From the IMG/VR virus record IMGVR_UViG_3300012662_000013, positions 1-43,404 of that record: a stretch of 43,404 nt of DNA; one strand, written 5' to 3'. The notes beneath the pieces were generated by a model. The model was not told the origin of the DNA. It worked only from the letters and a program-made list of their open reading frames with translations, and searched no databases. Of the stretch, positions 15,849 through 42,724 are shown piece by piece. The position numbers and the translations under genes were made by a program. Numbering within the stretch: the first letter of the stretch is position 1; every line of letters begins with the position of its first letter. Origin of the DNA: a virus (Duplodnaviria > Heunggongvirae > Uroviricota > Caudoviricetes).

Positions 15849-15876
15849 TTTTTTAGAAGGATTGGAGGTATTAATC

Positions 15877-16959: not shown

Positions 16960-18174
16960 TTGTCTAGCGAAGGTAAACAATATTATTGTGAAAAATGTAA
17001 TAAAACTATGGATGGAACTTAGTTTTATACATCAAATAATTTAGATAAGTATCCTAACGATGGCAAATTACCCCAATGCAAAAAATGTATTACAATGCAT
17101 GTGGATAATTGGAAACCAGATACTTATTTATGGATATTGCAAGAATGTGACGTTCCCTACATCCCTGATTAGTGGAATTAGTTAATGGGTAAATTTGCTA
17201 AGGATAGAGCGAAAGTTACTGGAATGACAATTTTAGGTCGCTATCTCTCAGCAATGAAATTAAATCAATGGAAAGATTATAGATGGAAAGATAGTCAATT
17301 CTTACAAGATTTACAAAATAAAAAAATAGAAGAGACAATGAAGCAATAGGGCTATGATGTATAGGATATAGCTACTGCTATTCAACGTGCTTCATTTGCT
17401 TTACCGACAGAAGAACTTAAAGAGCCACCGGCTCCTACTCCTCCCTCTCTAGATTTTGGGAATCAACAAGAAGATTATTTTAAAGATAAATTGGATTTTG
17501 ATATACCTGACCTAGGGGCAGAATTGACTGACGAAGATAAACGATATTTATATTTAAAATGGGGTAAAGGCTATAGTCCAGATGAATGGGTTCGCTTAGA
17601 GCAACTGTTTAATGAAATGATGTAGTCTTATGATATTTAGTCAGCAGGCCATATTGATACATTAAAACTTGCTTGCAAGACATCATTAAAATCTAATCAA
17701 TTATTAGACATAGGTGATGTAGACGGCGCTCAAAAGATGATTAAAATGTATGATTCTTTAATGAAGTCTGGCAAATTCACAGCTGCCCAAAATAAAGAAG
17801 AATCTGGTGATTTCGTTGATTCTGTTGGTGAATTAATAGAAATGTGTGAGAAACAAGGTTATATTGAAAGATATTATATTGATTCTCCAAATGATAAAGT
17901 AGATTTTACAATTAAAGATATGCAGAAATATACCCGTACTTTAATTGAACGAGAAACTAATCTTGGCAATATGATTGATTAGGCATTAAAACAAAACGCT
18001 AAAGAAGATGAAGAAGCCAAAGAAAACGTCGAAGATACAATTGTTGATGATGTTGATATGTCTATTGAAGATATCGAAAAAACTTTGGAAGATAAAGATA
18101 TTGAAGACTTTAGTGAATTTTTAGATAACGAGACAGAGTTAGATATAGATGCTTTCTCTGATAGAGAAGATTAA
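16960..18174 (+). CDS. putative terminase small subunit / Zn-finger protein, 404 aa (8 TAG)
   Basis: AAGGAG RBS then TTG. N-terminal CEKC...CKKC. TAATG overlap with terL. Function inferred from position only. Confidence 0.6.
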
Positions 18175-19925
18175 TGGCATTACAAGATTTACTTGACTTA
18201 TCTACTAGTCGGAAAAAGATAGGTCTTTCTGAAGAACGTATTAATGCTGTAATGCCTATTATTCGTAAATATACTGCCTTTTGGCGTGAATATCCAGATT
18301 TATTTGTAGATTTTTTAGTGCGAGGAACGCGTACAGAGCCAAAAGAGGGAGAATTTAGATTCTTCTTTTATTAGCGTGTGTTCCTACGATGTGTAATGCG
18401 TTATCAATATGTTTACGCAGTTTTCCCTCGTGCTTATTCTAAATCATTCTTATCAGTTATGGCTTTAATGGTTAGATGTATTCTTTATCCTGGAGTTCAC
18501 TTATTTGTTACTTCTGGTGGTAAGGAATAGGGTGCTAGTATTTTGCATGATAAAGTTAATGAACTTTGTGATTTAATACCTAGCTTCAGGCGTGAAATTG
18601 ACTGGGGCCGTGGTAAGAGCCAAGAGAGTAAAGATAAAGTACGCTATGTATTTAAAAATGGCTCTGTTCTTGATAACTTAGCTGCTAGAGAAAGCACTCG
18701 TGGTCAGCGTCGTCATGGTGGCTTGATGGAAGAATGTGTAGGTATTGATGATTAGATTTTGCGTGAAGTCATTATACCAGTTATGGCAATTCCTCGTAGA
18801 GCTAAAGATGGTACAACCCATGAAGAAGAAGCAGTTAATAAATCTCAGATTTATATCACTACTGCTGGTTATAAGAATACTTATCCTTATGATAGACTAA
18901 TTGGTTTATTGGTTCGTATGATTACTTAGCCTGATAGATGTATGGTATTAGGCGGGACTTGGCGAACTCCTGTAGCTGTTGGCTTACAATAGAAAACATT
19001 CATTACTGACCAAAAGAATGAAGGAACTTATAATGAAGCTTCTTTTGAGCGTGAATATGAATCTATTTGGTCTGGTACTGTTGAAGATGCGTTCTTTAAT
19101 GCGGAAATATTTAATAGAAATAGAATATTGAATTAGCCTGAATATGAGGCTTCTGGCCGTTCAAGTAAATTATCTTATTATATATTAAGTGTTGACGTAG
19201 GCCGTAAAGGATGCGATACTGTTGTTTGTGTATTTAAAGTAACGCCGTAGCCGCATGGTGAACCAATTAAGAGTTTAGTTAATATTTATACTATGAATGA
19301 TACTCATTTTGAAGATTAGGCTATTAAGCTTAAAAAATTATATTATAAATATAAAGCTCGTAGAATTGTAATAGATGCTAATGGTTTGGGCGTTGGCTTA
19401 GTAGATTTTATGGTTAAGCCTTAGATCAATCCTGAAACTTCTGAAGTAATTCCTGATTTTGGAGTTTATGGTGGAACTTAGGATGATGCGGTTTAGGAAT
19501 ATAAAAAATATAAAACCAATAGTACAGAATTAGACGTTTTATATTTGATGAAAGCTAATGCACCAATTAATACAGAAGCACACAGTATTACTTAGTCAGT
19601 ATTAAATTCTGGCAAGATCAAATTTTTAATTGATGAACGAACTGCTAAATAGAAATTATTAACTACTAAAGTAGGTTAGAATATGACTACTGAAGCTCGT
19701 TCTGATTATTTAAGACCTTTTAGTTTAACCACTTCATTGCGTGAAGAGATTATGAATTTGCGTGAAGAGAATGAAGGTTTAAATATTATTTTAAAACAAG
19801 CTAATAAAAGTATTAAAAAAGATAAATTCTCTGCATTAGAATATGGTTTATATTATATAAAAAAAGTAGAAGAAGATAAAAAGAAGAAAAAATTCCGGGC
19901 TGCTGATTGGATGTTTATGAATTAA
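18174..19925 (+). CDS. terL: terminase large subunit, 583 aa (14 TAG)
   Basis: Adenine-binding YQR (Q encoded by TAG), Walker A-like FPRAYSKS, Walker B LMEE, coupling motif ITTAG, RuvC-like SVDVG...IVIDANG...DKFSA. Confidence 0.9.
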
Positions 19926-20388: not shown

Positions 20389-22083
20389 ATGGAATTAGAA
20401 AAAGAAGAATTAACCAGAAATGAATAGATACATAAAAAAGGTTTTGATATAACTGGAGGAACACGAGAGTATTCTGCGGTTGGTCCTAGTGAATATAAAA
20501 AGATTAAAGTTGGCGTTAAGACATTAGATGATGCAGTTTTAAATCTTGGTTCATTCAGATGGGATACATATGGTCGTCGTAATGAAAAATATAGCCGTGA
20601 GCGCATTTATACTAAACCTATGGTTATGGATGCTTTGATTCGTAATGATATTCCAGAGCTGCGAAGAATATCACGCTTCTTTTTTAGAGTAAGTGGTATT
20701 TATCAAAGAGTATGTAATTACTTTGCAAATATGTATCGTTATGATTGGGCTATTGCTATTTAGTCTAATAATACTGATGGCTCAACCGTCAAAGATATTA
20801 ATGAGACAAAGGCAGTAAAAGATTTCTGGCGAATTTTAAATTATTTAGATAATTCTTATATTAAGAAGATTTGCGGCGATATGGCTCTTGAAGTTATTAA
20901 ATGTGGAGCTTATTACGCTTATATCGTTCCATCTAGCACTGGATTAGTTTTATAGCAACTTCCTATTGACTATTGCCGTTCTAGATATTCAGTAGGTAAT
21001 TTGCCTGCTATTGAATTTGATATGAGATATTTTGATACTTTTGTAGATACTAATTATCGTAATAGAGTATTAAAATTATTCCCTGATGAATTTACAGTAG
21101 GTTATCGTCTTTATAGGGCCGGTAAACTTTTGCCTGATGTAGCTGGTGATAATAGCGGTAGCTGGTATTTATTAGACCCGCAGAGTACTATTAAATTTGC
21201 TTTAAACGGCACTAATGATATTCCATTATTTGTAAATGCTATTCCAGCGATTTTAGATTTGGATGCCGCACAAGATTTAGACCGTCGCAAGCAAATGCAA
21301 AAATTATTAAAGATTTTAGTTTAGAAATTACCGCTTGACAAAAATGGTGATTTAATCTTTGATATTGATGAAGCTCGCGATATACATAATAATGCTGTTG
21401 AAATGCTTCGTAGAGCAGTGGGTGTTGATGTATTAACTACTTTTGCAGATGTAGAAGCAATTGATACATCTGATAAGAACACTTCTACAACCACTGATGA
21501 ATTAGAGCGTGTTGAGCGAACTGTGTATAATGCTTTTGGTGTTTCACGCAATTTGTTTAATACGGATGGTAATATTGCATTAGAAAAATCTATTTTAGAT
21601 GATGAATCTACTATGCGTAATTTAATTTTGCAATTCAACATATTTTTTGATAGAATATTATCAGTCCTAAATGTTTAGAAAAAATATAATTATAAGTTCT
21701 ATATGTTAGAAACTACACAATATAATTATAAAGATTTGTCTAAGATGTATAAAGAGCAAACTTAGATTGGTTTCTCTAAAATGCTACCTTAGATTGCTCT
21801 TGGACAATCACAGAGTTTTATTCTTAATACAGCTCATTTTGAAAATGAAGTTCTACATTTAAGTGAAGTTATGATACCGCCTCTTATGAGTTCTACTCTG
21901 AACGGTGAAGATATTTTGGGTAAAAAAGATTAGAATAGTTCTAGCACTTCTCAAAATAAAACAAGTGGAAATTCTACCACTACTACTGTGAAAACGGAAA
22001 CTAAAGAGAGCGGCCGGCCAGAAAAAGCTAACGACGAAAAGAGCGAAAAAACAATTGCTAATCGTCAAGCGGCTGGTAAATAA
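20389..22083 (+). CDS. portal protein, 564 aa (8 TAG)
   Basis: Lies between terL and the protease. Size fits. Low-complexity C-terminal tail with GRP. Frame free of TAA/TGA. Confidence 0.75.
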
Positions 22084-22095: not shown

Positions 22096-23658
22096 GTGAG
22101 ACATACAAGTGTTAAGTTAGATACTCCTGTTGAGTTTATTAATATCACTAAAATCAATCCTTTAATTTCTAAATGTTAGATTAAAGTTTGTTATGTTGGT
22201 GATAAACCAAATCGCAATAGAAGTGTTATAACAAAAGAAGTTGCTAAAGATTTAGCGTAGAGTTTGCCGGGTAGTCCTATTGTTGGCTACTTTAATGAAG
22301 CCAATGGGGATTATGAAGAACATAATCGTGTAATTGATATTTCTAATGGCAAATTTGATATAAAAGATACTACTGTTCCTTACGGTTTTGTAGATTTAGG
22401 AGCGAAAGTATGGTTTTAGAAATTTTTAGATGATGGAAAAAACGAGCATGAATATTTAATGACTGAAGGCTATATCTGGACAGATATTTATCCAGAAAGC
22501 AAACGTATTATTGAAAAAGGTAATAATCAATCTATGGAATTAGATGATGAAAAAATTAATGCGTATTGGTCGAAAGATAAGAATGGAATGCCCGAATTTT
22601 TTATTATAAATGAAGCGATAATTAAGAAACTTTGTATTCTTGGAGAAGATTGTGAACCTTGCTTTGAAGGAGCTAATATTACTGCACCTACAATGCATTT
22701 CTCATTTAGTGATAAATTTAATGAGCAATTATTCTCTATGATGAAAGATTTAAAAGAATTATTAGAAGGTAAAGGAGGAACAAAAGTGTTCACAAGATAC
22801 AATGTGGAGATTGGTGATTCCATTTGGACTTCTCTTTATTCTTACATTAAGGGCTTCGGTGCTGGTAATGCAGTGATTGAAGAAGTTTGCGAAGACAATG
22901 GTAATTTATTTGCTGTTGTTAAGGAAGATGACAAGTTCGTTCGTTTAGATTTTTCTATGGAAAATGATACTTTCACTCCTGGCGAAGTTTCTGAATTAAC
23001 TGATTATTCTGTTTCTGAGAACCCTCAATTCGATTCTGAAAAAGTCGCAGAATTTGCGAAAAAAAAGGACGAAAAAGATAAAGACAATAAAGAGAATAAT
23101 GATAATAATAAGGAAGATTCTTCTGACGATAAATCAAAAGATGACGAAAAGAAGGATACTTCTGAAGATAAACCTGCTGATACTTCTGACAAAGAAGAGA
23201 AGCCAGCTAAGGATGATGAAGAAGAAAAGAAGAAAAAGAAAGCTAAGTATTCTTTAGAAGACGTAGTTGAATATGGTTTATTAAAAGATGAGTATGCAGC
23301 TCTTGAAACTAAGTATAATGAATTAGTTGAAAAGCAATCGCAACTTGAACAAGAACTTGCTTCTTTAACCCAGTTTAAGACTGAGGCTGAAAGAGAAAAG
23401 AAGCAAGAGATGATTAATAGTTTCTATATGTTATCTGATGATGATAAGAAAGATGTTGTTGCCAATATTGATACTTATTCATTAGATGATATTGAAGCAA
23501 AGCTTTCTATTATTTGTGTTCGCAATAAGGTCAATTTCGATACTAATGTAAATAAAGAAAATGACCCACTTACATATAATATTAATAATGATGTAAATGA
23601 AGATAGCATTCCTGCTTGGATTAAGGCAGTATAGGATGTTGCGAAAACTATGGAATAA
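22096..23658 (+). CDS. prohead protease fused to an acidic coiled-coil scaffold, 520 aa (4 TAG)
   Basis: AAGGAGG RBS then GTG. Globular N-terminal domain (NRNRS, PIVG, E..H, SME motifs), a K/D/E-rich linker, a coiled coil and a PAWIKAV terminal helix. Confidence 0.7.
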
Positions 23659-23682
23659 TAAATTTTTAAGGAGGAAAACCTA

Positions 23683-24459
23683 ATGCTTTTAAAAGATATG
23701 CTTAAAGACCTAAGCGGCGTATCTGCTGTTAAGGGCGGTTACGTTGAATATGGCTATGGTCAGGTTGAGCCTAATCATTTAAGTGCTCAGCGCACTGGTC
23801 AGATTTATGCTCAGTTACCTGCTAATAAAAATATCCAGCTTCTTGAAAATGGCCAGTTTGTTAAGTATGACTATGCTGCTGGTGAGCTTGGTGAAGTTGA
23901 TTTCACTGGCAAGGGCGAATGGATGTTAGTTTATAATGAGATTAAACTTTATCGTGAGGAACAGGCCGATTGCGAATTTGCTATGCGCAAGGACGATTAT
24001 TAGGCTCGTTACTACAGCCCATATGATGGCAAGCAGGAGATTGGCACGCGTCAGGCTCGTTACCTAAACGGCAAGGATGCTGCTGGTAATACTTCTATAA
24101 CTATTAAGGATAGCCAGGGTGTAGAACATACTTATGAATATGATGATGTTACTGCTGGTCCTGATATCCGTGAACTCTTCTATGAAGAAGATCCTTTACA
24201 TTTCGATGGTCCTTATGAGGCCCGCAGAATGCCTGCTGGCACTAATATGGTTCCTCGTGTTTTAAAGACCAATGTTGGTGATATTTTTACGACTAATACT
24301 ATTGCTGAAGCTACTCTTGTAGTTGGCGATATTTTAAGCCCTCGTGCTACTGACGGTATGCTTTCTAAGTCTGGTGATGGCTCTATCCAGTGGTAGGTTG
24401 TTAAGGTTTATGAAATGCCTGACCATCAGAAGGGCGTTAAGATTATGCGAATCGCGTAA
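23683..24459 (+). CDS. head structural protein, decoration-like, 258 aa (2 TAG)
   Basis: AAGGAGG RBS. Sits between scaffold and capsid genes. Frame continues past TAG 24001 to TAA 24457. Confidence 0.6.
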
Positions 24460-24476
24460 GAAAGGAGAGAAGAAAA

Positions 24477-25613
24477 ATGTTAGATAGAAAAAATCTTGTT
24501 CAATTAATGAAGACTGTCGCTAAGGCTGATCCTTCTACTCCTACTGCTTACAGCTTTAATGGCGAAAGCCTTTCTTATGATGCTCTTAATGAAACTCTCC
24601 GCAGAGAATTAAATGAACTTGCTGGAACTTATTCTCTATATCGTGATAATAAGAACCTTATTTTCTCAATGATTGAGGAAACTATTGATGAAGTTCTTCC
24701 TAAGAAAGTTGAAGAGCAATATAATCAGTTTGCTGAAGTTAAGACTTTCAAGCAGGGTGACAAGCCCATCTTCCGCAGAAAGTTCAGCAATAATACTCGT
24801 GCAAAGCAATTCATTACCCGTGTCGGCCTAGCTGGTATCTATGAAGTATTCAAGCTTGGTAAGACCGAAGAAAGCTTTGAAGTCCGTACAAGTGCTATCG
24901 GCGGAGCTGCTCAAATTGGCTTTGAAGAGTTCCTTGATGGCCGTGTCGATTTTGGTACTGTCACCCAGATCGTTATGGAAGGTATGGACGAGCTTATCTA
25001 TAAAGAGATTGCTGGTGCATTAAAGGCCTCTATTAACCAGTTACCTCCTGCTAATCGTGTTGTTGGTAATGGTTTTGATGAACCCGCGTTTGATAAGTTA
25101 CTTATGATTGCTTCTGCTTATGGTACTCCTACTATTTATTGCACATATGAATTTGCTGTTCGTATGATTCCGAAGGATGCTTGGCGTTATACTGAAGCTA
25201 TGAAGAATGAGCTTTGGAACACTGGCCGTCTTGCTTCTTATAAGGGTTATAAAGTTGTTATCCTTGAGCAGGGATTCGAAGATGCTACCAATGAAAAGAA
25301 GGTCATTGACCCAGGTTATGCTTGGATTATTCCTACTGGTGCTGATAGTAAGCCTGTAAAGGTTGCTATGGAAGGCAATACCATTGTTGATGAATATACT
25401 AATTATGACCGCAGCCGTGAAATTCAGGTTTATAAGAAGGTTGGCGTTATTGCTATGTTAGCTAATAACATCTGCTGCTACTGTGATACCGAACTTCTTG
25501 GCGATATGAAGACTTGGCATCTTGATGGTGTAACTGGTAAGGTCCGTGATTATGCTGGCCAGATTACTGGTTCTCACGACACTATTGATGGCGGAAATGA
25601 AGATACTCCGTAA
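24477..25613 (+). CDS. major capsid protein, 378 aa (0 TAG)
   Basis: Position and size, highly expressed codon style, AAGGAG RBS, strong terminator downstream. Confidence 0.8.
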   Translation: MLDRKNLVQLMKTVAKADPSTPTAYSFNGESLSYDALNETLRRELNELAGTYSLYRDNKNLIFSMIEETIDEVLPKKVEEQYNQFAEVKTFKQGDKPIFRRKFSNNTRAKQFITRVGLAGIYEVFKLGKTEESFEVRTSAIGGAAQIGFEEFLDGRVDFGTVTQIVMEGMDELIYKEIAGALKASINQLPPANRVVGNGFDEPAFDKLLMIASAYGTPTIYCTYEFAVRMIPKDAWRYTEAMKNELWNTGRLASYKGYKVVILEQGFEDATNEKKVIDPGYAWIIPTGADSKPVKVAMEGNTIVDEYTNYDRSREIQVYKKVGVIAMLANNICCYCDTELLGDMKTWHLDGVTGKVRDYAGQITGSHDTIDGGNEDTP

Positions 25614-25647
25614 TTGATATTAACTAAAAATTAATATATAATATTTT

Positions 25648-25689
25648 TAGGGGAGAATGGGGAAATCCCCTTCTCCCCTATTTTGTTTT
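25648..25689 (+). terminator. intrinsic terminator after the capsid gene
   Basis: TAGGGGAGAA-GGGGA/TCCCC-TTCTCCCCTA followed by TTTTGTTTT. Confidence 0.8.
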
Positions 25690-25711
25690 ATGAGTAAAAG
25701 GAGAATAAAAA

Positions 25712-26278
25712 ATGAATAAAAAGATTTTGTTAGTTACTAACAGAAGTGCTGGGATGGTTGTTTATAATATTCCAGAAGAGGGCATCCGTAGAGAATTTAT
25801 GCCTGGTGAAACTAAGAAGATTCCTTTTGAAGAGTTAGAGAAGCTTGCCTATCTTAGCGGTGGCCGCACTTTAATGGAAAATTTCTTAAAAATTGTAGAT
25901 ACTGAAACTACACAAGAGTTAGGTATTCATACAGAACCCGAATATTATTTAGATGATGCTGGAGTTATTAAGCTTCTTACTGAAGGAACGCTTGATGAGT
26001 TCCTTGATTGTCTCGATTTCGCTCCTATTGGAGTTATTGATATGATTAAGAGCTATGCTGTCTCTCTTCCTATGAGCGATTATAATAAGCGTAAGGCTCT
26101 TAAAGATAAGACTGGATTTGACCTTGATAGAGCATTAGCTAATAAGGAAGCTGAAGCTGCTGAGGATGAGCAGATTACTCCAAAGGCACCTGAACGTAGA
26201 GTAAAGACTGAAACTAAGTCTACAATGCCTCCTGGCCGCAGAACTGCTCCTCGTTATAATGTTGTAAAAGAAGGTTAA
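25712..26278 (+). CDS. conserved-looking head-associated hypothetical protein, 188 aa (0 TAG)
   Basis: AAAGGAG RBS. Immediately after the capsid gene. Confidence 0.75.
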   Translation: MNKKILLVTNRSAGMVVYNIPEEGIRREFMPGETKKIPFEELEKLAYLSGGRTLMENFLKIVDTETTQELGIHTEPEYYLDDAGVIKLLTEGTLDEFLDCLDFAPIGVIDMIKSYAVSLPMSDYNKRKALKDKTGFDLDRALANKEAEAAEDEQITPKAPERRVKTETKSTMPPGRRTAPRYNVVKEG

Positions 26279-26300
26279 TTATAAATAAGGAGGGTTTTAT

Positions 26301-26912
26301 ATGACATATTTTTATAAAGTTTATGAACGCTTTTTAGGTAAAGTAACAGATGATATGTATTTAGAACTTACTCCTCGTGATACATTTTTAGATTTACGCC
26401 AATTACTTGTTGATAGTATTCCTGGATTTGAATTTCCACGTAAACGATTAGACTATGTTTTAGTTGATGAAGATGCTCCTGATTTTATAAAAGGAGAGAT
26501 TGATGGCGGAGATATTGACATTCCACTGGGCGGAGATTTATCTGAAGAAGTAACTGGTAGTAATATTGATATAGATAATGCTTTTTAGGAGATATTTTCT
26601 GAGGAAAATACCTCCTATTTTAATGCCGATTTAGATGATGAAGAAATAAATATCTTAGCTTTGATTATGGTTGAAGCCTGGGTAGAGCGTCAATTGGCAT
26701 CTATTGAAGTAACTAGAATGAAGTATTCTGGCACAGATTTTAAATTTACTTCATAGGCAAACCATATGTCAAAATTGTTATCATTGAGAACAGAAGTAAG
26801 ACGTTAGGCATTTCATATGCAAAGATTATATAAGCGTCGTAAAACTGATGATAATGGATATATTAAATCCAATTGGTCTATCTTAAGGGAGGTAAGCGCC
26901 CTTGATGACTAA
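26301..26912 (+). CDS. putative head-tail adaptor, 203 aa (3 TAG)
   Basis: AAGGAGG RBS. Frame open to TAA 26910. Function inferred from synteny. Confidence 0.6.
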
Positions 26913-27198
26913 ATATAATTTTAATATTGATAATAGTTTAATTAATACCAATATTAATAGATTAACTAACTAGATATGGAAATTAATTCCTATGAAAGAA
27001 AATGAAGAAGATTGGTTATCTTAGTTAAATACTGTAATTATTGAATTAACTGGTCTTGGAGAAATTTTTAATGATAGTTAGTATTTAATTCTTTTAAGTA
27101 AATTAGAAGGATTAAAAGGTACTGAAATGGAATTTCCTATTTATAGAAAGACGGTGTTTGAAGCTATCACTCTATTAAGGGGGCTTCACATTGAATAA
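26905..27198 (+). CDS. hypothetical neck-region protein, 97 aa (3 TAG)
   Basis: GGAGG RBS. Overlaps both neighbours. Invisible in the standard code. Confidence 0.7.
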
Positions 27199-28186
27199 GA
27201 ATGAATATTTAGATGCGATGTATAATCGTATTCCAAAAGCTAATATGCTTACAAGATATTTATACGGCGGTGGAGTAACAGGTCAATAGGATAGAATGAT
27301 AAGAGATAAACGTAAAAGTTTAAGTAGAGCTTTACTTTACTCTTATTAGGCGGCACAAGTTAAAAAATTATATGATAATAACGATAATATTGAACGTCGT
27401 GCATTAATTAATCCTGATAAACTTAAATAGGATTATGATGAAAAAATTATTTCCATTGGATTTGAAAGTAATTTTAAGACTGGCGATATTTTTCAATGGC
27501 TCGGTACTAATACTTATTGGTTAATTTATTTATAGGATTTAACTGAATTAGCTTATTTCCGCGGCAATATAAGACGTTGTTCTTATGAAATTGCTTGGGA
27601 AGATGAAGATAAGAATTACCATAAAACTTATGTGGCCTTACGTGGTCCCGTTGAAACTAAAATAAATTATATTCAAAAACATGAAATCAGTATAGACACT
27701 CCTAACCATTCTTTAAATATATTGTTACCTTATAATGATGATAATGTAAAATTATGTTAGCGTTATAATAAATTTTATTTATAGAATGACCCTAATAAAA
27801 CGTGCTGGCGTATTGAAGCTACTGACTTATATTCTACTCCTGGAATAATTGAGATTAATGCAGTTGAATATTATTCTAATGAAACTGCTGACGATGTTGA
27901 TAATGGTATTGTTGGCGGTTTAATAGAGCCAATTCAAGACCCTAATGAAGGTAAAGAAAATGGTATAATTGGAGATACCTTTATTAAACCAAAAATAGTG
28001 TATGAGTATAAATATGATGGAATTAAATCTGGCAAATGGACTTGGGATAAAAAATTACCATTAACAGTTAAAGTTGATGAAGAATCAAAAACTTTAAAAC
28101 TACGATGGGAAACTACTTATTGCGGATAGTTTGATTTATTCTATGGGCCAGAATGTAAAACCATTGTAGTAGAATCTTTATTTTAA
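27191..28186 (+). CDS. putative head-closure/neck protein, 331 aa (7 TAG)
   Basis: AGGGGG RBS then TTG. No TAA/TGA in frame. Function inferred from synteny. Confidence 0.6.
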
Positions 28187-28207
28187 AGATGAAGGAGAAA
28201 CCGGAGA

Positions 28208-28798
28208 ATGAAAATCGATAATGTAAAAAATCCAGAGTCAGCATTTTTGGCCCAAGAGAAAGATATGAAAATTATTGTTGATCGTATGGCCGCGAATCAA
28301 CGTTTACGTAAATTACTTTATTATACTACTCCTGATGCTTTAAGAAAGCCAGAAGTAAGTGATTAGAATTTTGTAAAGATGTTTGGCAGAAATATTAGGA
28401 ATTTACCGAAACTTTATATAGATAAGGATGTTTTAAATTATATAGTTATTAGTTTTGATAATTTTGCTCCTAATGGAGAAAATCCTGAATTTAGAGATAA
28501 TACTATTGAATTTGATATTGTTTGTCATTATGATTAGTGGCAATTAGATGATTCATTTTAGTTAAGACCTTATAGAATTGCTGCTGAACTTGATAGTATG
28601 CTTGATAAAAAACATTTAACTGGAATTGGGCAACTTAATTTTATTGGCGCTTAGCAAATTATATTAACTGATGAATTTGCTGGACTTTGTTTATTATATG
28701 ATACAATACACGGAGGAGAAGATAAAAAATATATGCCAAATCCTGCTGATGAACAAATGTTTATCGAGGATTATTTTAAAATGCCTAAGATGAATTAA
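28208..28798 (+). CDS. putative tail terminator/completion protein, 196 aa (4 TAG)
   Basis: GGAG RBS. FDIVCH...RPYRIAAELD..L pattern. TAATG overlap with the next gene. Confidence 0.55.
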
Positions 28799-29532
28799 TG
28801 GATTATAAACTTAGTTTGATGTGCGGGACAGACTTACCTGTTCCAGAAATTCCATTAACTCTTCATTAGCCTAAGATAAAGGAAATAGCATTAATTGGCG
28901 AAAAAGAATTTTTTACTGGTGCTCAGTGTCTTTGTATTAATAAAAATAGTATTATAGACTAGGACAAAAACGGTTTAGATACTACTACCAATTTTTAGAT
29001 ATTTATGATGGTAATGCTATAGAAAGATAATACTGAACGGCGAAAAGCTGCACAAAAGGTTCTATCATTACTATTCCCAAATTCAAAGTCTACATTTACT
29101 CCTAGGTCTATTATTATTTAGTATAATGATAGTGATATTTAGATTAATATGGATAATGACAACTTTGAATTGTTTTAGTAGGTAGCAAGGCAAATTTTTT
29201 GCTTTGATACTAATAAAAATGGGCAAGATAATTATAATCCTGCTAATAAGAAAGCTCAAGAAATAGCTAATAAATTAATGAAAGGGCGTCAAAGGGTCGC
29301 TGAACTTAAAGGGGTTACCGATTCAAGCATTTTGAGCCAATACGTTTCTACTTTGACTATTGGACTAGATTCAATGTCATTAGAAGATTGTATGAATTTA
29401 ACATTGTATTAGTTATACGATTTAATAGAAAGATTCTCTCTTTATACTAATTGGGATATTGATGTAAGGAGTAGATTAGCAGGAGCCAAGTCAGACAAAA
29501 AGCCTGACAATTGGATGAAAAACATTCATTAA
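28798..29532 (+). CDS. tail-region protein, possibly chaperone-like, 244 aa (9 TAG)
   Basis: Translationally coupled start. No TAA/TGA in frame. Confidence 0.65.
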
Positions 29533-29611
29533 TTTTGTATAAATCGCTTTACTAATTTTTGTAGCGAGTTATATAAATAAAATTTAAATTTTATTAAGGA
29601 GGAAATAACCT

Positions 29612-30709
29612 ATGAAATTTGGTGTTCGTGAGATATGCGATGTCGTATTAAAAGCTCGTGCTCCTATGAAGGTTGGTAATAAAGTTTTCTATGCGAACGA
29701 ACCAGTTCTTTATTTCGATACATTAAAGACTTCTAGCCTTGAGGGTGCTTCTACGACCGTATATGCACAAGGCGGACGCGGCAATGCTCGTTTAGTAGCT
29801 TGGGACGGCGACCGTACTTTAACATTCACTATGGAAGATGCTCTTATTTCTGCTGAAGGTTTCATGATTCTTTCTGGTGCTGGCTTAATTGATGCTACTG
29901 CTAGTAATACTATCAAGCAGCACGTAACTGAAAAGACTACTGCCGTTGTTTTAGCTGAAGATAAGAAGAGTGTTCAGATTTATACTACTAACCTTCCTTA
30001 TGAATATATTTCTAAGGATGGCAAGCGTGATGGTGAATATTACATTTATGCTATGTTAGTTGACAATGATGAGCCTGTTACTGAACCTTATTTACCCACT
30101 GTAATTCGTACTGGTACTAAAGCTGATAGATTCCATTATGTTGAAGCTAGTAAGAGTTATGAAAAGTTAGCTTCTGATGAAGAAGTTACTGCAGCTCAAG
30201 ATAAGGGCGAAACTATTTATTATGGTCTTCAGATTAAAGCTATAACTGAGAATGCTGATGATAATATTAAGGGCTATGCTATCGTTGATGGTAAGACCGA
30301 AGATGATTATCATAAGCTTGCTAAGTTTGAGAATGGCGTTGTTCTTCTTGACTATTATGTTGAAAAGGCTAGTAAGGCAAAGCAGATTGAAATTACCGCT
30401 GAATCTTTCGGTGGCAACTTCTATCTTGAAGCTTCTACCTTATTCCGTACTCAGGATGGTGTTGATCTTCCTGCTGAGTTTATAATTCCTAACTGCAAAG
30501 TTCAGTCTAACTTTACTTTCAGTATGGCTGCTACTGGCGATCCTTCAACTTTCACTTTCACTCTTGATGCATTCCCTGGAACTACTCGTTTCAATCCTAC
30601 TAAGAAAGTTCTTGCGGCTATCTAGATTATCGAGGAAATCACCGATGCTTCCATGTATCGTACTCAGACTGTCCACGATTCTAAACATGATAGCTACTTT
30701 GATATTTAA
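29612..30709 (+). CDS. major tail tube protein, 365 aa (single TAG at codon 338)
   Basis: AAGGAGG RBS. Beta-rich, highly expressed codon style. Position upstream of the tape measure gene. Confidence 0.75.
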
Positions 30710-30711
30710 TT

Positions 30712-30870
30712 ATGATTATTAATTCTCGTGCCCCTCGTCCTGAGAAGGCTTATGAAGAAAAAGTTGTAGTTGAAGAATCAAAGAAGGAAACCAAAGCTAC
30801 TGTAAAAACTAAAGAAGCTCCTCTCACTGAAGATGAGCTTATTAATAAAATTATTAAAGGAGAGGGTTAA
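30712..30870 (+). CDS. 52-aa K/E-rich small ORF (MIINSRAPRPEKAYEEK...)
   Basis: ATG 2 nt after the tail-gene TAA, with no RBS. Codon style matches the tail gene. Ends in the terminator. Confidence 0.5.
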   Translation: MIINSRAPRPEKAYEEKVVVEESKKETKATVKTKEAPLTEDELINKIIKGEG

Positions 30871-30887
30871 TCCCTCTCCTTTTTTTT
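30856..30887 (+). terminator. intrinsic terminator
   Basis: AAAGGAGAGGG/CCCTCTCCTTT stem followed by a T-run. Confidence 0.85.
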
Positions 30888-32997: not shown

Positions 32998-33034
32998 ATT
33001 ATATAAATAGGAATTGAGAGAAAGGAGAAAACAT

Positions 33035-36000
33035 ATGGCTAATAATAGTGCCCAATATGATGTAAGACTTGCCTTTTCAGCAGATGTAGCTTAGGCAAGA
33101 TAGCAATTAAAAAGTTTACAAGATGAATTAAGTAAACTTAGTACATTGAAAGATGTAAGTGTTGGAACTCGTTTAACGAAAGAGTTAGAATAGGCTTCTT
33201 TAAAAGCGGCTGATTTAAAAGTAATGCTTGAAAAGGCAACTGATATTAATACAGGCAAGTTAAATCTAACTTCTTTCTCTAATTAGCTAACTAAAAATGG
33301 AGAAAGCCTATCTACTTATAGGAAAGCATTAAGTGCTCTAGGTCCTCAAGGTGAAGAAGCTTTTTTACAATTAACATAGAGTGTAATTACTGCTGATGCG
33401 GCTTTAACTACAGGTAGTAAGAAATTAAATGAATTTAAAAAGACTTTAGCCAATACAGTAAAATGGCAAATTTCTTCTAATATTACTCATGGTATTGTGG
33501 GAGAACTTTAGACTGCCTATTATTATGCTAAAGATTTAGATAGGGCTTTAACTGATATCAAAATTGTTACAGAAGATAGTGCTGGCTCTATGGCCGATTT
33601 TGCCTAGAAAGCTAATAAAGCAGCTTAGTCTTTAAGTACTACTACTAAAGATTATGCTTAGGCTTCTTTAATTTACTATCAGTAGGGTTTAAGTGATAAA
33701 GAAGTAGAAGCAAGAACGGCGGTTACTATTAAAATGGCAAATGCTGCTGGTGAAAGTGCATCTAAAGTGTCTGATTAGCTAACGGCTGTTTGGAATAACT
33801 TCTATGATGGTAGTAAATCTCTTGAGTATTATGCTGATGTAATGACAAAACTTGGCGCTTATACTGCCTCTAGCACTGATGAAATTTCAGAAGGTATTTA
33901 GAAATTCGCTTCTGTAGCTAATACAATTGGTCTTAGTTATGAATATGCGACATCTGCCTTAGCTACTTTAACAGCGAAAACACGTGAAAGTGCTAACGTA
34001 GTAGGTAATAGTCTTAAGACCCTTTTTGCACGTATTTAGGGTTTATCTCTTGGAGAAACTCTAGAAGATGGTACTGATTTAAATAAATATTCTACAGCTT
34101 TGGCAAAAGCTGGTATTGATATTAAAGATTAGAATGGCGAGTTAAGAGATATGAATTCTATCCTTGATGAAATGATGAACAAATGGGATGGAATGAGCCG
34201 TGCCCAGTAGGTAGCATTAGCTCAAACTGTAGCGGGTGTGCGTCAATATACTTAGCTTATTAATCTTATGGAAAATAAGGATTATTTTAAAGAGTTAGTT
34301 GGAGTAGCGGAAAATTCTGAAGGAACGTTATAGATATAGGCAGATATATTTGCTGATAGTTGGGAAGGTGCTCGAAAAAGAGTTCAGGCTGCTGCTGAAG
34401 GCATTTATGATAGCTTAATTGATGAAGAGTTTTTTAAAGATGTTGATAATGTTGTTACTGTAGTATTAAATGGTATTAATGCTACCATTAAAGGATTAGG
34501 TGGAGTTAAAGGAGTAGTATCTAATATTAGCGCTTTAATTTTAAATATATATAAAAAAGATATTACTAGCGGATTAAATAATTTTGGAACAATGTTAAAA
34601 AATCTAACTCCATAGGGTTAGGCTTCTATAGAAGCTCGTAGACAAGAAGCTTTAGAGCAATAGAAAAAATTATATACTGGAGGCATTACTCCTAGTGAAT
34701 TAAATTCTTGGGAAACTGCAAGTTATCAAGATGATGCTAGATATGAAAAATATACTAAATTAGCGGAAGTTGAATAGTAGATTTTAAATATTTCTAAAGA
34801 TTTAACAGAAGAAGAAAAAAAATAGGCTGGATTGTATTTAGATATATTGAATGCTGCTTCTGATAGAAAAGTTCTTACTAGCTAGCAAGTTGATCAAGCT
34901 AAAGAGCAATATCAAACTATAGCCTCTTCATTAATTCATTCTTTGCGTTTAGCAGGAGCTGGAGATAGAGATGTTACAGAAGTTATTAGAAAAAATAATA
35001 ATTATTTAAATGCAGCGAGTATAGCTTATTCATCTAATACTATCAGTAAAGTTGATGAAAAATCTCCTTTCGATACAGTATTACAATCTTCAAAAATAAA
35101 AGATATTGAAAATCTACAAAAAATGATTAATGATCTATAGAATTTTAATGATTTTGATTTTGCAAGATTTAATGAAGATGCTTTTATAGGAATAAAAACA
35201 TCTTTAGATGAATTAATAACTAAATTAAAAAATGGTACAGCAACAGCTAAGGAATTTAATAAAGTCTTAGAAGATACTGGTAAATTTACTATGACAGCTG
35301 CTTTTGGATAGAGAGAACAAATAGATCCAAAAACTGGTAATATTACCTAGTCAGCCATTCCAGGGGCTAGACAAGAAGTCCAAGAACAAATGGAAATAGC
35401 TACAGTATATACAGAAGCTACTGGTCCTGCTTAGCAATTAGCTTAGGCTACATAGGGTCTTAATGTAGCTATGGAAAGATAGATTAAAACTAGCAATGAA
35501 GTTAAAGCCAGTGAAGAAGGAACTACTGAAGCAGTAAAAAAATTAGGAAATAGTACTGTTGAAGCTAGCGATAAAATAGTAGCTTTTAGTACTTCAGCTA
35601 TGAATATAGCTGGAATTTTTAACTCGCTTTAGGGAGTTGTTAACATTTGGTCTAATGATAATTTATCAGGATGGGAAAAAATTTTAGGGACATTAACTAG
35701 CCTAGGGATTCTTTTACCTAATTTAGTAAGTTTAGGTAAAGCTATGACTATAATAACTCAAAAAATTACAGTTGCTAAAACTCAAGAAGCTGCTGCTCAT
35801 ACTCTTAATGGAAATGCGATACAAGCTGAAGGGGAATAGGCTAAATTAGCTAATAAAAATTTTTCTATATTAGGTAAATCAATGAGTGGTATTAGTGCTG
35901 CGGCGGGTTGGATTAGCATTGCTTTAACTGCTTTAACACTTATTATTTCAGCTGTATCAGCTGCGATTGAAGAAGCTAAAGAAAAACGAGCTGAATTTGC

Positions 36001-39000
36001 ATAGACTACTAAAGAAACTTATGAATAGACTAAATAGGAAATAGAAGAAAATGAAAAACTTGTTACTTCTTATCAAGAATTATTAGAAACTTATAAAAAA
36101 ACTGGCGAAGGAAAAACAGATTTAGTAAATACTTCAATAGAATTAATTGATGTATTTGATATAGAAAATGGTAGTTTATTATTATTATAGGGAAATTATG
36201 AAGAATTAACCAAACGTATTTTGGAAGCTAAATAGGCTAAAGATACATTAGCTATTGGTGAGGCTAAAGCAGCTTATTTTGCAGCAAATGATACAGTTAA
36301 GGATGAGTTAGGTAGTACTTTTGGTTCTTATTGGGATATTGCTAGTGAAAATGCTGGAGATAATCAAGGATCTCGTTTATAGATTGCTCATATAGCTGGT
36401 TCAGATTATGATATTATGTAGCAATATTTAAATTCTGTAGAAGGCTCTTCTAATTGGACTGTTAAAAATTTCCAAGGGAATGGAGCTTTTGATATTGCTA
36501 ATGTAATAGATTTTTATGATAATGCTAATACAAATATGTAGTAGTTTAGCGAGTGGGCTTAGAAAGAAACATCTAATGGAGGATTAGGTTGGTCTGAAGA
36601 ATAGGTTAATGAATATCTAGAAGAAAGTCGTACTAGCTTAGCTTCTATAAAAACTTTGGTTGATGGATGGAAAGATATTCAAAATGATACTAATTTAGCT
36701 ATTTTAAATGCTTCAATGAATGAATATGATGAAACTAAAGTTAAAGATTTGCCTTCTTATTTAAAATAGAGAGAAGTATTCACTAATCAGAAAGACGATT
36801 TAGAAGTTGGATATACTTCTAACCCTGATGAAATTATTACTAGCTTTTTAGGAACAAATTCTAAAACTTCTGATTATGAAACTCTTCTTAATGGATTACA
36901 ATCTTGGTATGATTAGTATTCTTCATTTTTACCGAATTTTGAAGAAATTATAAATAGTGGATTAACTGACGAAGAATTAAAAGTATTAGTCAATATCGAT
37001 CCTAGAATAACCGGTGGTTCTTTAGAAGATTTACAAAATTAGATATAGAAATATTTAAAAACTCATCCGGTAGATATATCTGCCGATATTAAAGCAGGTA
37101 AAAAGGCTTTAAAAGAAGATATGTCTGGAAAAAATGATTGGAAAGATTTTTGGGAAGCTACCAGTAATATCACTTGGGGGAAAAATGGTATTGTTAGTTA
37201 GGCTGATTTTTAGGGAATGCAATATGGTCAATAGCAGAAATACCTTAATGAATTATATTCTCAAAATGCCTAGACTTTTTCTCCTGAAGAAAGAATAGCT
37301 AGAGCTACTGAAGAAAATGCTGAGTTAGAATAGCAAATAAATAATTTAAAAGGTTTATCAGATGAATAGGTAACCGAATTACAAAGAGGCAATTTAACAG
37401 AGAAACAAAATTAGGCTTATGATGATTTTTCTAATTATGAAACTTAGATAAATAATTTATTAGAAGCTTATAAAAATTCTGATAATTATGGAAAATATAA
37501 CGATAGCTCTTGGTATGAAGATATGCTTTTCTCTAACACAGCTTTTAATAATCCAGGGATGTATGATAATTGGATTAATACCTTGATTGCTAGAATAGGA
37601 GGTACTCCTGAAAATTTCATAAAACCTGAAGTAACTACAGAGAATAATTTAATTGAAGGACGAGATACCAAAAGAAATTTAGAGAATTAGAGACAAGGGT
37701 TTTAGGAAGATAATATTACATAGTTAGAAAAAGAGCAAGCAGAAAATACTAGAGAATTATAGAATGCTTTAATAGATTATAATACTGAAATATCAAGAAC
37801 AATACAGAATTTAGCCAATACTGATTTAAAAATTGGAGATATTATTTAGCCTGAATAGGTTGAAGCTTTAAAAGCTATTGGCATAAATTTAGATGATTAT
37901 TTCATTCCAATGGAAGATGGTACTTATAAATTAATTACTGCTGCTGAAGAATTTAATAGAATCGTTGGTAAGGCTAGCATCTAGAATGCTTATAATGGTG
38001 CTGATATCATTATTCAAAATTTATAGGATAGTGGGCATTTTTTAAAAACTAATGGTTTATCAGATAAAGAAATTCGAGAACAAGCAAGAGTTTAGGCAGA
38101 AGATATTATTGATAATTAGGGACAGACTAACTGGAGTGAAGAACGTAAATAGGCTTATTTAGATGCAGCTAAAGTAGATTCTACTTAGTTTGATAGTATA
38201 GATGAGGCAATGGTTGAAGCAGCTTAGCGGCTTAAAAAAGAAATTGAAAATGGAGATTATATCATTGATGTTACCATTAAAAATGCTAATTCTATGTCTG
38301 AATTAGAAAATTTAGCTAAAGAGGCTGGATGGAATAAAACTGATAAAGAATATACTGATGCTATTTTAAATTATCAAGCTGAAAATGGTAATAGCTTAGG
38401 CCGTGATGAAGCTATAGCTGTTCAACGAGATTCTTAGAATAAATAGGCTGCTGATGAAGCTTTAGCAGAAGCTTAGAAATAGGAAAATAAAGCTAGAGAA
38501 GCTGTATATAATGCTACAGGAAATGATTCTCGTGGAATATCAAATCGAGTATTAGCAGAAGAAGAATTAGAAAAGGCAATAAATAAAAGAGTTGAAGCTG
38601 AAACAAAAGTTAAAGAGGCTGATGATAAATTAGCTAATTCAACAGAAACTTTGAGTAAAAAAATGAAAAAAGTTGATTTTACAGAAACTGTTAAAAATTT
38701 AAAGGAATATGCAGATAAATTAAAATCAGCGGGAAAAGGTACTGAAGAATATGAATAGTCTCTTAACGGTATGGCGGAAGAACTTTAGAATGCTTTTGGC
38801 GGAAATTTTGACGCAGAAATAGTTAAAAAACATCAAAATTTGATTAATAAATTAATAAATGGTACAGCTTAGGCTAGACGAGATGCAGCTGCTCAACTTT
38901 CTATAATAGGTCAAGACAGTAAATTTAAAACTAATATGGAATAGGCTTTTGAAGGAGCAGAAGAGGAAGTGCAAACTAAAGTAAATGAAATTACTTCTGC

Positions 39001-42000
39001 TTTTAGCACTATGACCAATGGTTTAAGTTTTAATGTCGATGGTAGTATTACTATGGATAGCCAATAGGCTATTGCTTAGGTTGGTGCTTTAATTGGATAG
39101 ATGGATAATCTTGAAGCCGCAGCAACATTAGGTGGTAGCTTCTTAAGAGCTTTGTTAGACAGTAATATCGAATTTGATGCTTCCTCTATGGAAAAATTGG
39201 AAAATATGCTAATAGTCTTTGCTAAAGTCCAAAATGGTGAAAATGTAGATGTTAGCGAAGTCAAAAATGCGTTTAAAGATTTAGGGGATATTGGATTATT
39301 TGCTTCCGGTAAAGCCATTGATGTTCCTCCTTATAATATGGCTAATAAAAGTGGTGGAGGAGGAAGTAAGTCTAAAAAATCTGCTGCTGATATTGGTAAA
39401 GAAATTCAAGATGAAAAATTAAAAACTTATGAAAAGAAACGTGAATTGTTAGAAGCTAAGCGTGATGGAGCTAATCCAGAAGATGCTGCTAAATATATCC
39501 AAGAAGAAATTGATTTACTTAAAGAAGAGCAAGATATTCTTGAAGATTAGATTAAATCTTGGAAAGAATTATTAAAAGTTAAAGTTCAAGAATTTAATAA
39601 AGAACATCCAGAGTTTGAAATTAAACTTACTGATGATGGCGAGATTGCTAATGCTTCTGAATTATGGGGTTAGGTTTGGGCTTAGTATCAAAAGAATCTT
39701 GAAGATGGCATGAGTGAAGAAGAACTTAATGAATGGTTCACTAAAATTAAAGACGCTCTTGATGGTCCTATGGGTATCCAATAGAACATTGATGAAAACG
39801 TTGCTCTTATCGCTTAGAAAGAAAAAGAAGCTGCTGAACTTGAACTTGAGTCAATTACAAAAGCTATTGACTGGAAAGTTAAACAGATTGATTTTTAGAT
39901 TAAACGTCTTAATTACTATCAAGAAAAACTTCTTAAATAGGCTCACGGTAATAAACAAACTATTGAAGCAATGCTTGAAGGGTTTGCTTACCAAGAGCAA
40001 GAAATGTTATAGCTCTTTGACAAAGGTGCTACATTACGTTAGGGTATTGATTAGTTAAATGCCGCGAAAGCTAAGTATCCAGGTTATGAACAAATGTTCG
40101 ATGAATAGATACTTGAATATCAAAGTGATTTGATAGATGTTAATGAAGCTATTCTAGACTTGCGTAATGATATTGAAGATTTAGTTTAGAATGTTCTAGA
40201 CTTGGCACTTGATGAAATTGATAAGTAGATAGAACGTCTTGATACTTATACATCAATGCTTGACCATCTCAATAATATTATTGATTTGTCTGGTCGCTCA
40301 ATGCTTGATATGGGATTAAAAACTTAGATTGGCGCTACTAAGGTAGAAACAATGTTAGGTAAAATGAAATCCTTAAAAGCCCAGATGGATGGCTTAACTA
40401 AAGCGACTAAAGAAGCAGAGGCGGCCCTTGCTGACCGTTAGGCTGATGGCGATACCTCTTCTGTTAAATTCTGGGAGAATCAAGTTGAGGTCTTAAAACA
40501 AGAGACTGAGAAGGCTTCTGAAGAATTCTTAGCGTCTTGGGAAGAAACTCTTGAAGCCGCTCAAGATTTATTTGAAATGCGTGTTGAAATGGCTGTTGCA
40601 GTATTAAGTAATGCCTTATCACCATTTGAAACTCTTGAAGATTTCTAGGATAAATATGAAAAGGCAAAAACCATCAATGAAGAGTACCTTGATGATGCTG
40701 AACGTCTATATGAGTTGAATAAGTTAAATCGTTAGCTAAATTTATAGCTGGCTGATGCTAATGACCTTTTAGCGAAACAAAAACTTAGAGACCTTCAGCA
40801 AGAGATTCACGATCTTCAGGCCGATGGTGTCCAGATGAGCCAATATGATCTTGAGTATTTACAAAAGAAATATGATTTACAACTTGCTGAAATTGCTCTT
40901 ATGGAACAGCAAAACTCAAAGACTTCAATGCGTTTAGTGCGTGATGCCGCAGGTAACTGGACTTACGCTTATGATGCTGATGAAGAAAAGATTGAAGATG
41001 CTACATAGAAATATGAAGATGCTGTCCATGAGTTAGATTAGCTAAGTAAAGATTATATTAATGATGTGAGTGAATAGTTGATTTAGAATTAGATTGATTT
41101 TAAAGAAGCTTTACAAGACCTTGATAAGAATTCTGCTGATTATTCTAATTAGCTATTATCATTATAGGAATATTATGTTGAAAGACAAAGATATTTACTT
41201 GATGAATTAAATAAAGGTGTTGTAAATAGCGGATAGACTTTTCATGATACCCTTTACGGCCAAATGACTGATCTGTATGATTACAATGATGCTTATATGT
41301 TATTCGTTAATAATTCTAATGCTACTATAACTGAACTACAAACCAATTATAAAGATTGGCAAAAAGTTGTAGAAACTGCAATGAGTGTTGCTGGTACATC
41401 TTGGGATAACTTTGGTACTGATATGGGCGGCACTCTTGATAGCCTTGAAGAACATATTCAAAAATTATGTGATGAAATTGAGGAACTCGTTAATGTATTA
41501 ATGGGTTATATTTCTCAGTCTATTGGAATGGTCCTGGATTGGGAATAGAAATATTCTAAGCGTACTGATTAGGAACTTGCAGCCAATGAATCTTATATTG
41601 ATGGTAATTTTATTGGCAGTAGCAGTGGTGGAGGAAGTAGCAATGTAGATATGCAAACTGACTTTACTGCTTTAATACAGCGTTGGATGGCTGGTGAACG
41701 TGATTTAACTAACTGGGATAATTCTAAAACTTATAATAGTTTGGAAGAAATAAAAGCCGATTTAGGTAAAAAATTAGATGCTTTTGAAAATGGTGAAGAA
41801 ATACTTTTCTAGGGAAGTGGAGAATCATTTGACGAAGATGCTTATCAAACAGTTTATGATCATTTTTATAAAGGTTATGGAACTAACGGCGGAAGGTATG
41901 GATCTCTTTCTTATCCGAATACTTTTAGTAATAGTATTGTGGATAAAGCTGCTAATTACTTAGGAACAAAATATACCTATGGTGGTAAAGACGCGAGTAC

Positions 42001-42724
42001 TGGTTTAGATTGTTCTGGATTAGTATATAAAGCATTGAATGATGCTGGAGTTAATGTTCCTATATTAACGGCTGAAGGATATAAACAAATGGCTAAATCT
42101 ATTAGTTCTGCTAATATCAAACCTGGTGATTTAGTATTTTTTGGAGCTAATGGCGTGGCTGATCATGTAGGAATTTATATGGGCAATGGTTAGATGATAA
42201 ATGCTACGGGTACTAAGACTTAGATTACTAGTATAGATTCTAAAAAAGCTGGATTAATTGGTTATGGTCGTATAGGTAATAGTTATTCTTCTAGCGATAC
42301 TGCTGCTTTGATGGATAGACTTGGTTTATCTAGAAGAGGTGGAGCTGCTTCTGGAGCTTATACTGGTGATTGGGGTCCTGGTTAGGGTATAGGTATTGAT
42401 AATGGAAAAATTATTAAAGTCCATCCAAAAGAATTGATACTTAATAAATCTGATACTAGAAATATACTTCGTGCAGTTGATATTGTTCGTAATATGAATG
42501 ATTGGGTAGATAAACAAGTTTAGTAGTTATCTAATTTAAGTTCTTCAAAATTAGATAGCTTATATAATTCTGCTATCCCAAGATATGATACTCAACCAAT
42601 TAAGCAAGAAGTCACTATTCAAGCAGATTTCCCAGGAGTTACTGATCATTATGAAATTGAAGAAGCATTGTCTAATCTTAGCAATAATGCTGCTCAATAT
42701 ATAAGTGCGAATAAATCTAAATGA
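33035..42724 (+). CDS. tail tape measure protein with a C-terminal NlpC/P60 peptidoglycan endopeptidase, 3229 aa (about 115 TAG)
   Basis: GAAAGGAG RBS. 9690 nt with no in-frame TAA/TGA until TGA 42722. TP901-type N-terminal core, hydrophobic helices near 35.6-35.95 kb, long coiled coils. NlpC/P60 motifs YTYGG...LDCSGLV...PGDLVFF...HVGIY (about 41.93-42.27 kb). Confidence 0.9.

Follow-up and report, generated by a model that had tools for sequence, protein, structure and literature searches.

Why should a gut phage that reads the amber codon TAG as a sense codon at hundreds of sites keep this codon out of a few of its virion genes? The question is raised by the window analysed here, the first 43.4 kb (43,404 nucleotides) of a 107,404-bp viral contig, IMG/VR record IMGVR_UViG_3300012662_000013, which is 57% complete by CheckV. 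From position 15676 on, the window carries a co-directional block of virion genes that is open only with TAG as a sense codon. Within this block, TAG is scarce in five genes taken to encode abundant proteins, i.e. a nested scaffold protein, a decoration-like head-associated protein, the major capsid protein (MCP), the product of a gene starting at 25712, and the major tail (tube) protein. An earlier note, made from the sequence alone, had proposed that TAG dosage tracks virion copy number and could regulate the supply of virion parts. Our analysis indicates that the pattern is real and conserved, and that ordinary translational selection, acting here on a reassigned stop codon as well, accounts for it best. 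Quite probably, the TAG contrast is a consequence of expression level, a costly codon having been removed by translational selection, and not a device that sets expression level.

TAG content of the late genes

The MCP gene (24477..25613, + strand; 378 aa) contains 11 glutamine (Gln) codons, of which 0 are TAG, 4 CAA and 7 CAG, and gene 25712 (25712..26278, +; 188 aa) has no TAG among its 2 Gln codons. One TAG (30623-30625) is present among the 10 Gln codons of the major tail gene (29612..30709, +; 365 aa), the others being 2 CAA and 7 CAG, and two are present among the 14 of the decoration-like gene (23683..24459, +; 258 aa), which uses CAG for the remaining 12 and no CAA. The putative nested scaffold gene (22786..23658, +), whose product would be a charged, coiled-coil-like protein of 290 aa, has 1 TAG among 7 Gln codons. 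MCP is homologous to annotated major capsid proteins of Bacillus phages, and homologs of the major tail protein are annotated as tail tube or major tail protein. For comparison, TAG accounts for 14 of 22 Gln codons in the gene for the terminase large subunit (TerL; 18174..19925, +), 8 of 21 in the portal protein gene (20389..22083, +) and 115 of 215 in the gene for the 3236-aa tape measure protein (33014..42724, +), all of which encode low-copy proteins. Every hand count given for these genes in the earlier note was reproduced. Its single TAG for the scaffold region holds for the nested gene, whereas the whole open reading frame (ORF) containing it (22096..23658, +; 520 aa) has 4 TAG among 12 Gln codons, three of them in the N-terminal protease part.

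Taken together, the five abundant genes contain 4 TAG among 44 Gln codons, compared to 282 among 551 in the 18 other late genes (Fisher 1.8e-8). These 18 low-copy genes are homogeneous, with about 51% TAG (chi-square p 0.10). Within this genome there are two classes of genes and not a gradient. The proposal that TAG dosage tracks virion copy number is upheld for the contrast between abundant proteins and the rest, but not as a grading among the latter.

It had further been suggested that TAG load could act as a regulatory device, the yield of each subunit being lowered by the number of TAG codons in its gene and subunit stoichiometry being set in this way. The contrast has the direction expected of such a device, abundant proteins being TAG-poor and rare ones TAG-rich, but the low-copy genes stay near 51% TAG whatever their copy number or length. 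The expected effects are also too small. With a per-codon suppression efficiency p, the yield of a gene with n TAG codons is p to the power n, which for the 115 TAG codons of the tape measure gene is 31% at p = 0.99, 10% at 0.98 and 0.3% at 0.95, so that p must be about 0.98-0.99 or better. At these values the yields of TerL and portal would fall by just 8-25%, whereas copy numbers differ tens to hundreds of fold. In addition, the TAG levels of the low-copy genes match mutational expectation (see below), with no need of selection for TAG, and a strong terminator-like hairpin of the intrinsic type (30856..30882, +; 11-bp stem including 6 G-C pairs, then a T run) lies downstream of the major tail gene, where it would provide conventional dosage control. 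It is thus very unlikely that TAG load sets subunit stoichiometry.

The same arithmetic indicates where a TAG codon would matter. In phage lambda, each residue of the tape measure protein corresponds to about 1.5 Å of tail. By this rule, a tape measure of 3236 residues would imply a tail near 0.5 µm in length, its tube being made of several hundred subunits. A single TAG in the tube gene would then require about as many suppression events per virion as the 115 in the tape measure gene, so that selection would see the former and not the latter.

Conservation of the contrast in related phages

A capsid-protein search yielded 80 related loci. Grouped at a portal identity of 90%, these form 17 clusters, of which 13 are recoded and 4 use the standard code. 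In 13 of 13 recoded lineages, the decoration-like, capsid and tail genes together contain 0-4 TAG, compared to 59-201 in the other genes; pooled over these lineages, the numbers are 10/454 and 1173/3008, respectively. TAG is depleted from these genes also relative to CAA, the other non-preferred synonym (odds ratio 0.10). Across the same lineages, the gene 25712 family has 1 TAG among 90 Gln codons. The nearest described recoded phage, phAss-1, is distant (49% capsid identity) and shows the same contrast, with 0/33 versus 20/178. Cultured relatives are large siphoviruses of Firmicutes (Enterococcus EF1-like and SPbeta-like), with Enterococcus, Bacillus and Lactococcus as hosts. IAS virus (KJ003983), considered as an independent TAG-recoded crAss-like comparison, is essentially without in-frame TAG and was dropped.

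In a tree based on TerL, portal and MCP with a recoded outgroup, two standard-code clades (loci L008-L024 and L070-L075) are nested among TAG-recoded lineages, so the lineages do not represent independent origins. The tree implies either two losses of the code or several gains of it within short distances. The pattern in the abundant genes has nevertheless been maintained while TAG sites elsewhere turned over. Some TAG columns are common to up to 12 of the 13 recoded clusters.

A putative nested scaffold gene within the prohead protease ORF

Residues 1-225 of the ORF at 22096-23658 match proteins annotated as prohead protease in Bacillus phages, and PHROG 3313 covers residues 8-510. An in-frame GTG at 22786 is preceded by a strong ribosome-binding site (aaaggagg). 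In 16 of the 16 lineages examined, an internal start (GTG, ATG or TTG) with a GGAGG-like Shine-Dalgarno sequence is found at codon 227-233, and the scaffold start proposed in the earlier note, 22786, coincides with this conserved internal start. These features point to a scaffold gene nested within the prohead protease ORF, with a putative separate product. Nested protease and scaffold genes are known from phages lambda (C and Nu3) and Mu (I and Z), and the layout is the same, with an in-frame internal start and its own ribosome-binding site in the C-terminal part of the protease ORF. As in these pairs, an abundant scaffold would share the C-terminus of the protease; the likeness is one of gene layout, the product being predicted here.

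TAG usage changes at the internal start. In the 12 recoded lineages that have the protease-scaffold gene, 38 of 93 Gln codons are TAG upstream of this start, where only the protease is encoded, and 4 of 88 downstream, where the scaffold would be encoded as well (Fisher 1.7e-9); the AAG fraction is 0.21 upstream and 0.40 downstream. Transcript, strand and reading frame are identical on either side, and only the presumed translation flux differs. The switch is therefore a clean natural control, which separates translation level from transcript, strand and composition, and in other uncultured phages such switches could help to find genes that are nested or heavily translated.

Codon bias in the abundant genes

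TAG avoidance belongs to a strong general codon bias of the same genes. In 16 amino-acid families, abundant and other late genes differ in their codon fractions by more than 0.15. AAG makes up 77% in abundant genes and 16% in the others, TTC 60% and 17%, CTT 55% and 16%, CGT 68% and 37%, and CAG 74% and 7%, while GGG, CGG, CGA and ATA are avoided in the abundant genes. When the lineages were pooled, CAG was the most enriched codon, and TAG was depleted (log2 -4.1) more than ATA (-2.9) but less than CGA, CGG and GGG (-4.4 to -7.0). A bias score built without Gln codons, with weights from the standard-code relatives, was negatively correlated with TAG fraction in a comparison of 16 gene families (Spearman -0.88, and -0.79 when the top three are left out). 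Contig-wide, bias is strongest in the genes for the tail protein, MCP and the decoration-like protein and in gene 25712, which ranks fourth; the bias of the decoration-like gene equals that of the MCP gene. Bias strength agrees with two proxies of expression, namely the copy number suggested by protein identity and the change in codon use at the internal scaffold start. In the standard-code relatives these genes are biased as well, a preference that is clear for TTC and CAG but less regular for AAG.

In the recoded cluster of locus L054 (L052-L055), the lysine preference is the reverse of that in the other lineages, AAA being preferred in abundant genes (AAG 0.02 versus 0.14 elsewhere); TAG is still kept out of the abundant genes of this cluster. 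Outside the virion block, two TAG-free genes of the window (3178-4080 and 5524-5949, both on the - strand) use CAG for 8/8 and 8/8 of their Gln codons. A TAG-free gene elsewhere on the contig (105995-107377, -) uses CAG for 23 of 25 and is among the more codon-biased genes of the contig. These three may be highly expressed early genes.

The GC content at third codon positions (GC3) is 0.28-0.34 in abundant genes and 0.17-0.22 in others, which would suit a base-composition artefact or a recent transfer of these genes from standard-code phages. However, a higher GC3 would not lower TAG, which itself ends in G, and the most enriched codon, CAG, is one transition away from it; GC3 was therefore ruled out as the cause. 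The earlier note had allowed that GC3 or general codon bias might explain the pattern fully, and TAG avoidance is indeed part of a general bias, but one for which GC3 is not responsible. Recent transfer was also rejected, since the abundant virion genes are syntenic core genes in 80 of 80 relatives, the decoration-like and tail proteins, at about 53% identity, have diverged as far as the TAG-rich ones, and the change happens within a single ORF. Either origin is extremely unlikely.

The bias also bears on the idea, raised in the earlier note, that bulk subunits accumulate early while assembly-limiting parts stay locked. TAG-free subunits could be made before suppressor tRNA builds up, with the TAG-rich parts locked until then. 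Suppression is not required for the MCP gene or gene 25712, nor for most orthologs of the tail and decoration-like genes, and published models have recoding delay the late proteins. On the other hand, the TAG-poor genes belong to a single co-directional block, at distances of 12-25 nt from neighbours rich in TAG, and no promoter-like site is listed directly upstream of them. The decoration-like TAG is kept across a clade and the scaffold TAG across a cluster, so both products depend on suppression. Moreover, TAG-free early and replication genes are CAA-rich and unbiased, unlike the CAG-rich and biased abundant virion genes, a difference that timing does not predict, and a switch at a nested start within one ORF cannot reflect transcript timing. 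Nothing in these data calls for an early accumulation of bulk subunits, which we regard as quite unlikely.

Decoding of TAG

Aligned TAG sites correspond to Gln in standard-code relatives in 144 of 265 cases (54%), and the value for CAA/CAG sites is also 54%, which indicates that this phage reads TAG as glutamine. No tRNA genes were found in the 57%-complete contig, and hence no tRNA with anticodon CTA, tRNA(CTA), is present there. One such tRNA each was identified in four complete recoded relatives (185-201 kb), one of which is from the window's cluster, and none in one complete standard-code relative. A release-factor gene was found neither in this contig nor in the four complete relatives.

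The complete recoded relatives carry 13-31 tRNA genes each as called by ARAGORN, including the single tRNA(CTA) (L111, 2466-2540, - strand; tRNA regions of G001, G002, G004 and G005). Many of these phage tRNAs read A-ending codons (GGA, CAA, ACA, GAA and AAA) that are avoided by the abundant virion genes. In two of the complete recoded relatives, a tRNA-Phe with anticodon AAA was called.

Selection, mutation and the cost of suppression

TAG columns represented by a single contig are 15 of 18 in the MCP, tail and 25712 genes, compared to 4 of 58 in TerL and 11 of 66 in portal; in the MCP gene, 59 recoded contigs have 6 TAG columns, 5 from one contig. In these alignments, the excess of singletons in abundant genes is a signature of purifying selection, as slightly deleterious variants would leave it. 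The low-copy genes have a TAG:CAG ratio of 4.5 (6.9 in the window). The corresponding ratios in these genes are 6.0 for CAA:CAG, 4.4 for GAA:GAG and 11 for TTA:CTA, with T:C at fourfold sites similar. Since TAG:CAG is within this range of A:G and T:C synonymous ratios, the TAG richness of low-copy genes needs no positive selection.

In the low-copy late genes of the 13 recoded lineages, the base after TAG is T at a frequency of 0.196, versus 0.268 after CAA and 0.293 after CAG. This modest depletion would fit continuing competition by release factor 1 (RF1), if T at this position favours termination, as in E. coli.

We propose that TAG would be read by a single phage-encoded tRNA with anticodon CTA, as in the complete relatives, and that host RF1 presumably still competes, the phage relatives being without a release factor. 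In weakly translated late genes, TAG would be a nearly neutral synonym drifting to the level set by AT-biased mutation, i.e. about half of the Gln codons. The five abundant genes, presumably translated hundreds of times per virion, would be under strong selection for translational efficiency and accuracy, and selection would remove TAG from them together with GGG, CGG, CGA, ATA, AAA and CAA, while CAG would be kept. Phage structural genes have been found to favour host-preferred codons (Lucks et al. 2008, PMC2266997). The counts and their conservation, the link to codon bias, the change within one ORF, the surplus of singletons and the suppressor tRNA of the relatives were directly observed; from these we infer expression level and RF1 competition as the causes. 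The disfavouring of TAG in the most heavily translated virion genes fits the assumption, made in the earlier note, that amber decoding is costly.

Several points weigh against this explanation: i) virion copy numbers were deduced from what the proteins appear to be, and two of the five, the decoration-like protein and the 25712 product, have no assigned role; ii) codon preferences were judged from phage genes; iii) with nearly complete suppression, as the tape measure requires, each TAG would cost little, and its removal would need either very large effective population sizes or a limit in the supply of suppressor tRNA; iv) owing to the relatedness of the 13 lineages and a probably ancestral recoding, the pooled p-values treat the lineages as more independent than they are; v) the singleton TAG codons could partly be assembly errors; and vi) a crAss-like tail tube family is reported as TAG-enriched, so the rule is possibly not universal.

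A different kind of cost has to be weighed as well, in which TAG is avoided because self-assembling subunits, when truncated, would poison the assembly of capsid or tail. All five TAG-poor proteins polymerise or co-assemble, and termination at a rate of 1% at 11 Gln codons would truncate about 10% of the capsid chains. This leaves the parallel bias at non-Gln codons unexplained, however, and the portal and tape measure proteins also assemble, yet their genes are TAG-rich. Poisoning is unlikely as the explanation of the contrast, but it is compatible with translational selection as an additional component of the cost.

Positions of individual TAG codons

Since single TAG codons near the C-terminus had been noticed in abundant genes, it had been suggested that a single terminal TAG could gate an assembly-critical tail such as that of the scaffold. 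Gating of this kind would give truncated and full-length isoforms of the scaffold, tail tube or decoration-like protein. The scaffold TAG (23632..23634, +) has 7 residues after it and occurs only in the window's own cluster (L001, L002 and L005); the column is variable, with R, M, F, L, I, Q or E in other lineages. One decoration-like TAG (24394-24396) is at an invariant Gln (WQVVKVY) and is common to the clade L001-L005, while the other (24001-24003) is unique within its cluster. The tail TAG (30623-30625), with 27 residues after it, is at a near-invariant Gln (AAIQIIE), and no relative has it, including L001. TAG codons are spread evenly along the low-copy genes (mean relative position 0.495, Kolmogorov-Smirnov p 0.09), and the sporadic TAG codons in abundant genes of relatives are scattered along the genes. 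A preferential C-terminal placement was accordingly rejected, there being no positional bias in the relatives.

The residues after each of these TAG codons are conserved, e.g. the PAW[IV]KA...VAK end of the scaffold, and a truncated product would probably be functionally different. The terminal TAG codons do not, however, show the combination of a fixed stop and a conserved extension that marks programmed readthrough of the Q-beta A1 type. The tail TAG is a singleton, the scaffold TAG is confined to the closest cluster and stands at a variable residue, and the decoration-like TAG is a clade-restricted variant. With the scattered TAG codons in the relatives and the uniform distribution in low-copy genes, these findings make gating extremely improbable, and the conservation of terminal TAG positions that the earlier note had looked to is absent among the relatives.

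TAG density might also act as a functional control, the abundant subunits being independent of the suppressor, and so available in any state of the code switch, and the terminase, portal, connectors, tape measure and fibres being held until suppression is high, with occasional single TAG codons in abundant genes giving rise to functional truncated isoforms. We consider such a scheme quite improbable.

Other features of the window

The late block opens with a sigma-factor gene (15676-16941), the C-terminal region of whose product weakly matches HNH endonuclease and Lar-like families. TAG accounts for 2 of its 12 Gln codons, a lower fraction than in other low-copy late genes. The terminase and portal genes are separated by an HNH or homing-endonuclease gene with one TAG (20015-20371). 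The gene at 30912-32282 (456 aa), which follows the tail tube gene and precedes a chaperone-like gene, has 21 TAG among 32 Gln codons, one of these TAG being the second-to-last codon. It has no PHROG match and a detectable homolog in only 11 of the 80 relatives. Terminator-like hairpins lie on both sides of this gene, the one at 30856-30882 upstream and another at 32962-32992 after the next gene downstream.

A Pfam search with ten virion proteins gave no matches, and PDB sequence and profile searches returned nothing for the tail, decoration-like or capsid proteins. AlphaFold models based on alignments of 16-17 sequences were poor (mean pLDDT 54 for the tail protein and 43 for the decoration-like protein), and Foldseek comparison of these two models with the PDB gave no significant match. 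No family or fold could be assigned to the decoration-like protein by sequence, profile or structure searches.

Comparison with known systems

Stop-codon recoding in phages is usually viewed as regulatory, with TAG in late genes delaying their expression. Two results temper this view for one large phage family. First, the abundance of TAG in ordinary late genes is about the level of AT-biased mutation, and no adaptive explanation is needed. Second, selection against TAG where translation is heaviest implies that suppression carries a cost, even where a phage depends on it at hundreds of codons. For annotation, the capsid gene is a poor guide to whether a phage is recoded.

The pattern resembles translational selection on highly expressed genes, phage structural genes included (Lucks et al. 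2008, PMC2266997), with the same coordinated preference and rare-codon avoidance and with a bias strength that would follow the presumed translation level. It differs in that the avoided codons include a reassigned stop codon, presumably read by a phage suppressor tRNA, and in that the bias switches inside an ORF at a nested start.

The code 15 gut phages (10.1101/2021.08.26.457843; Yutin et al. PMC7886860; phAss-1 group PMC10607447) likewise use TAG for Gln in late genes, with TAG-free early and replication genes, a suppressor tRNA(CTA) in close relatives and a standard code in some relatives. These studies stress the enrichment of TAG in late and lysis genes as regulation, whereas we find its depletion from the abundant late proteins. 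In the available portion of the preprint by Borges et al. (10.1101/2021.08.26.457843), gene families enriched in recoded codons are reported, but not depleted ones. A capsid gene without TAG has been mentioned in passing for one recoded crAss-like phage, without the explanation given here (10.64898/2026.08.21.746148).

A parallel in framing is found in pyrrolysine-using archaea, in which readthrough is described as the supply of suppressor over the demand of UAG-containing transcripts, with highly expressed UAG genes dominating (PMC12626013). These archaea keep UAG ambiguous, whereas in the phage studied here UAG serves as a general Gln codon at hundreds of sites.

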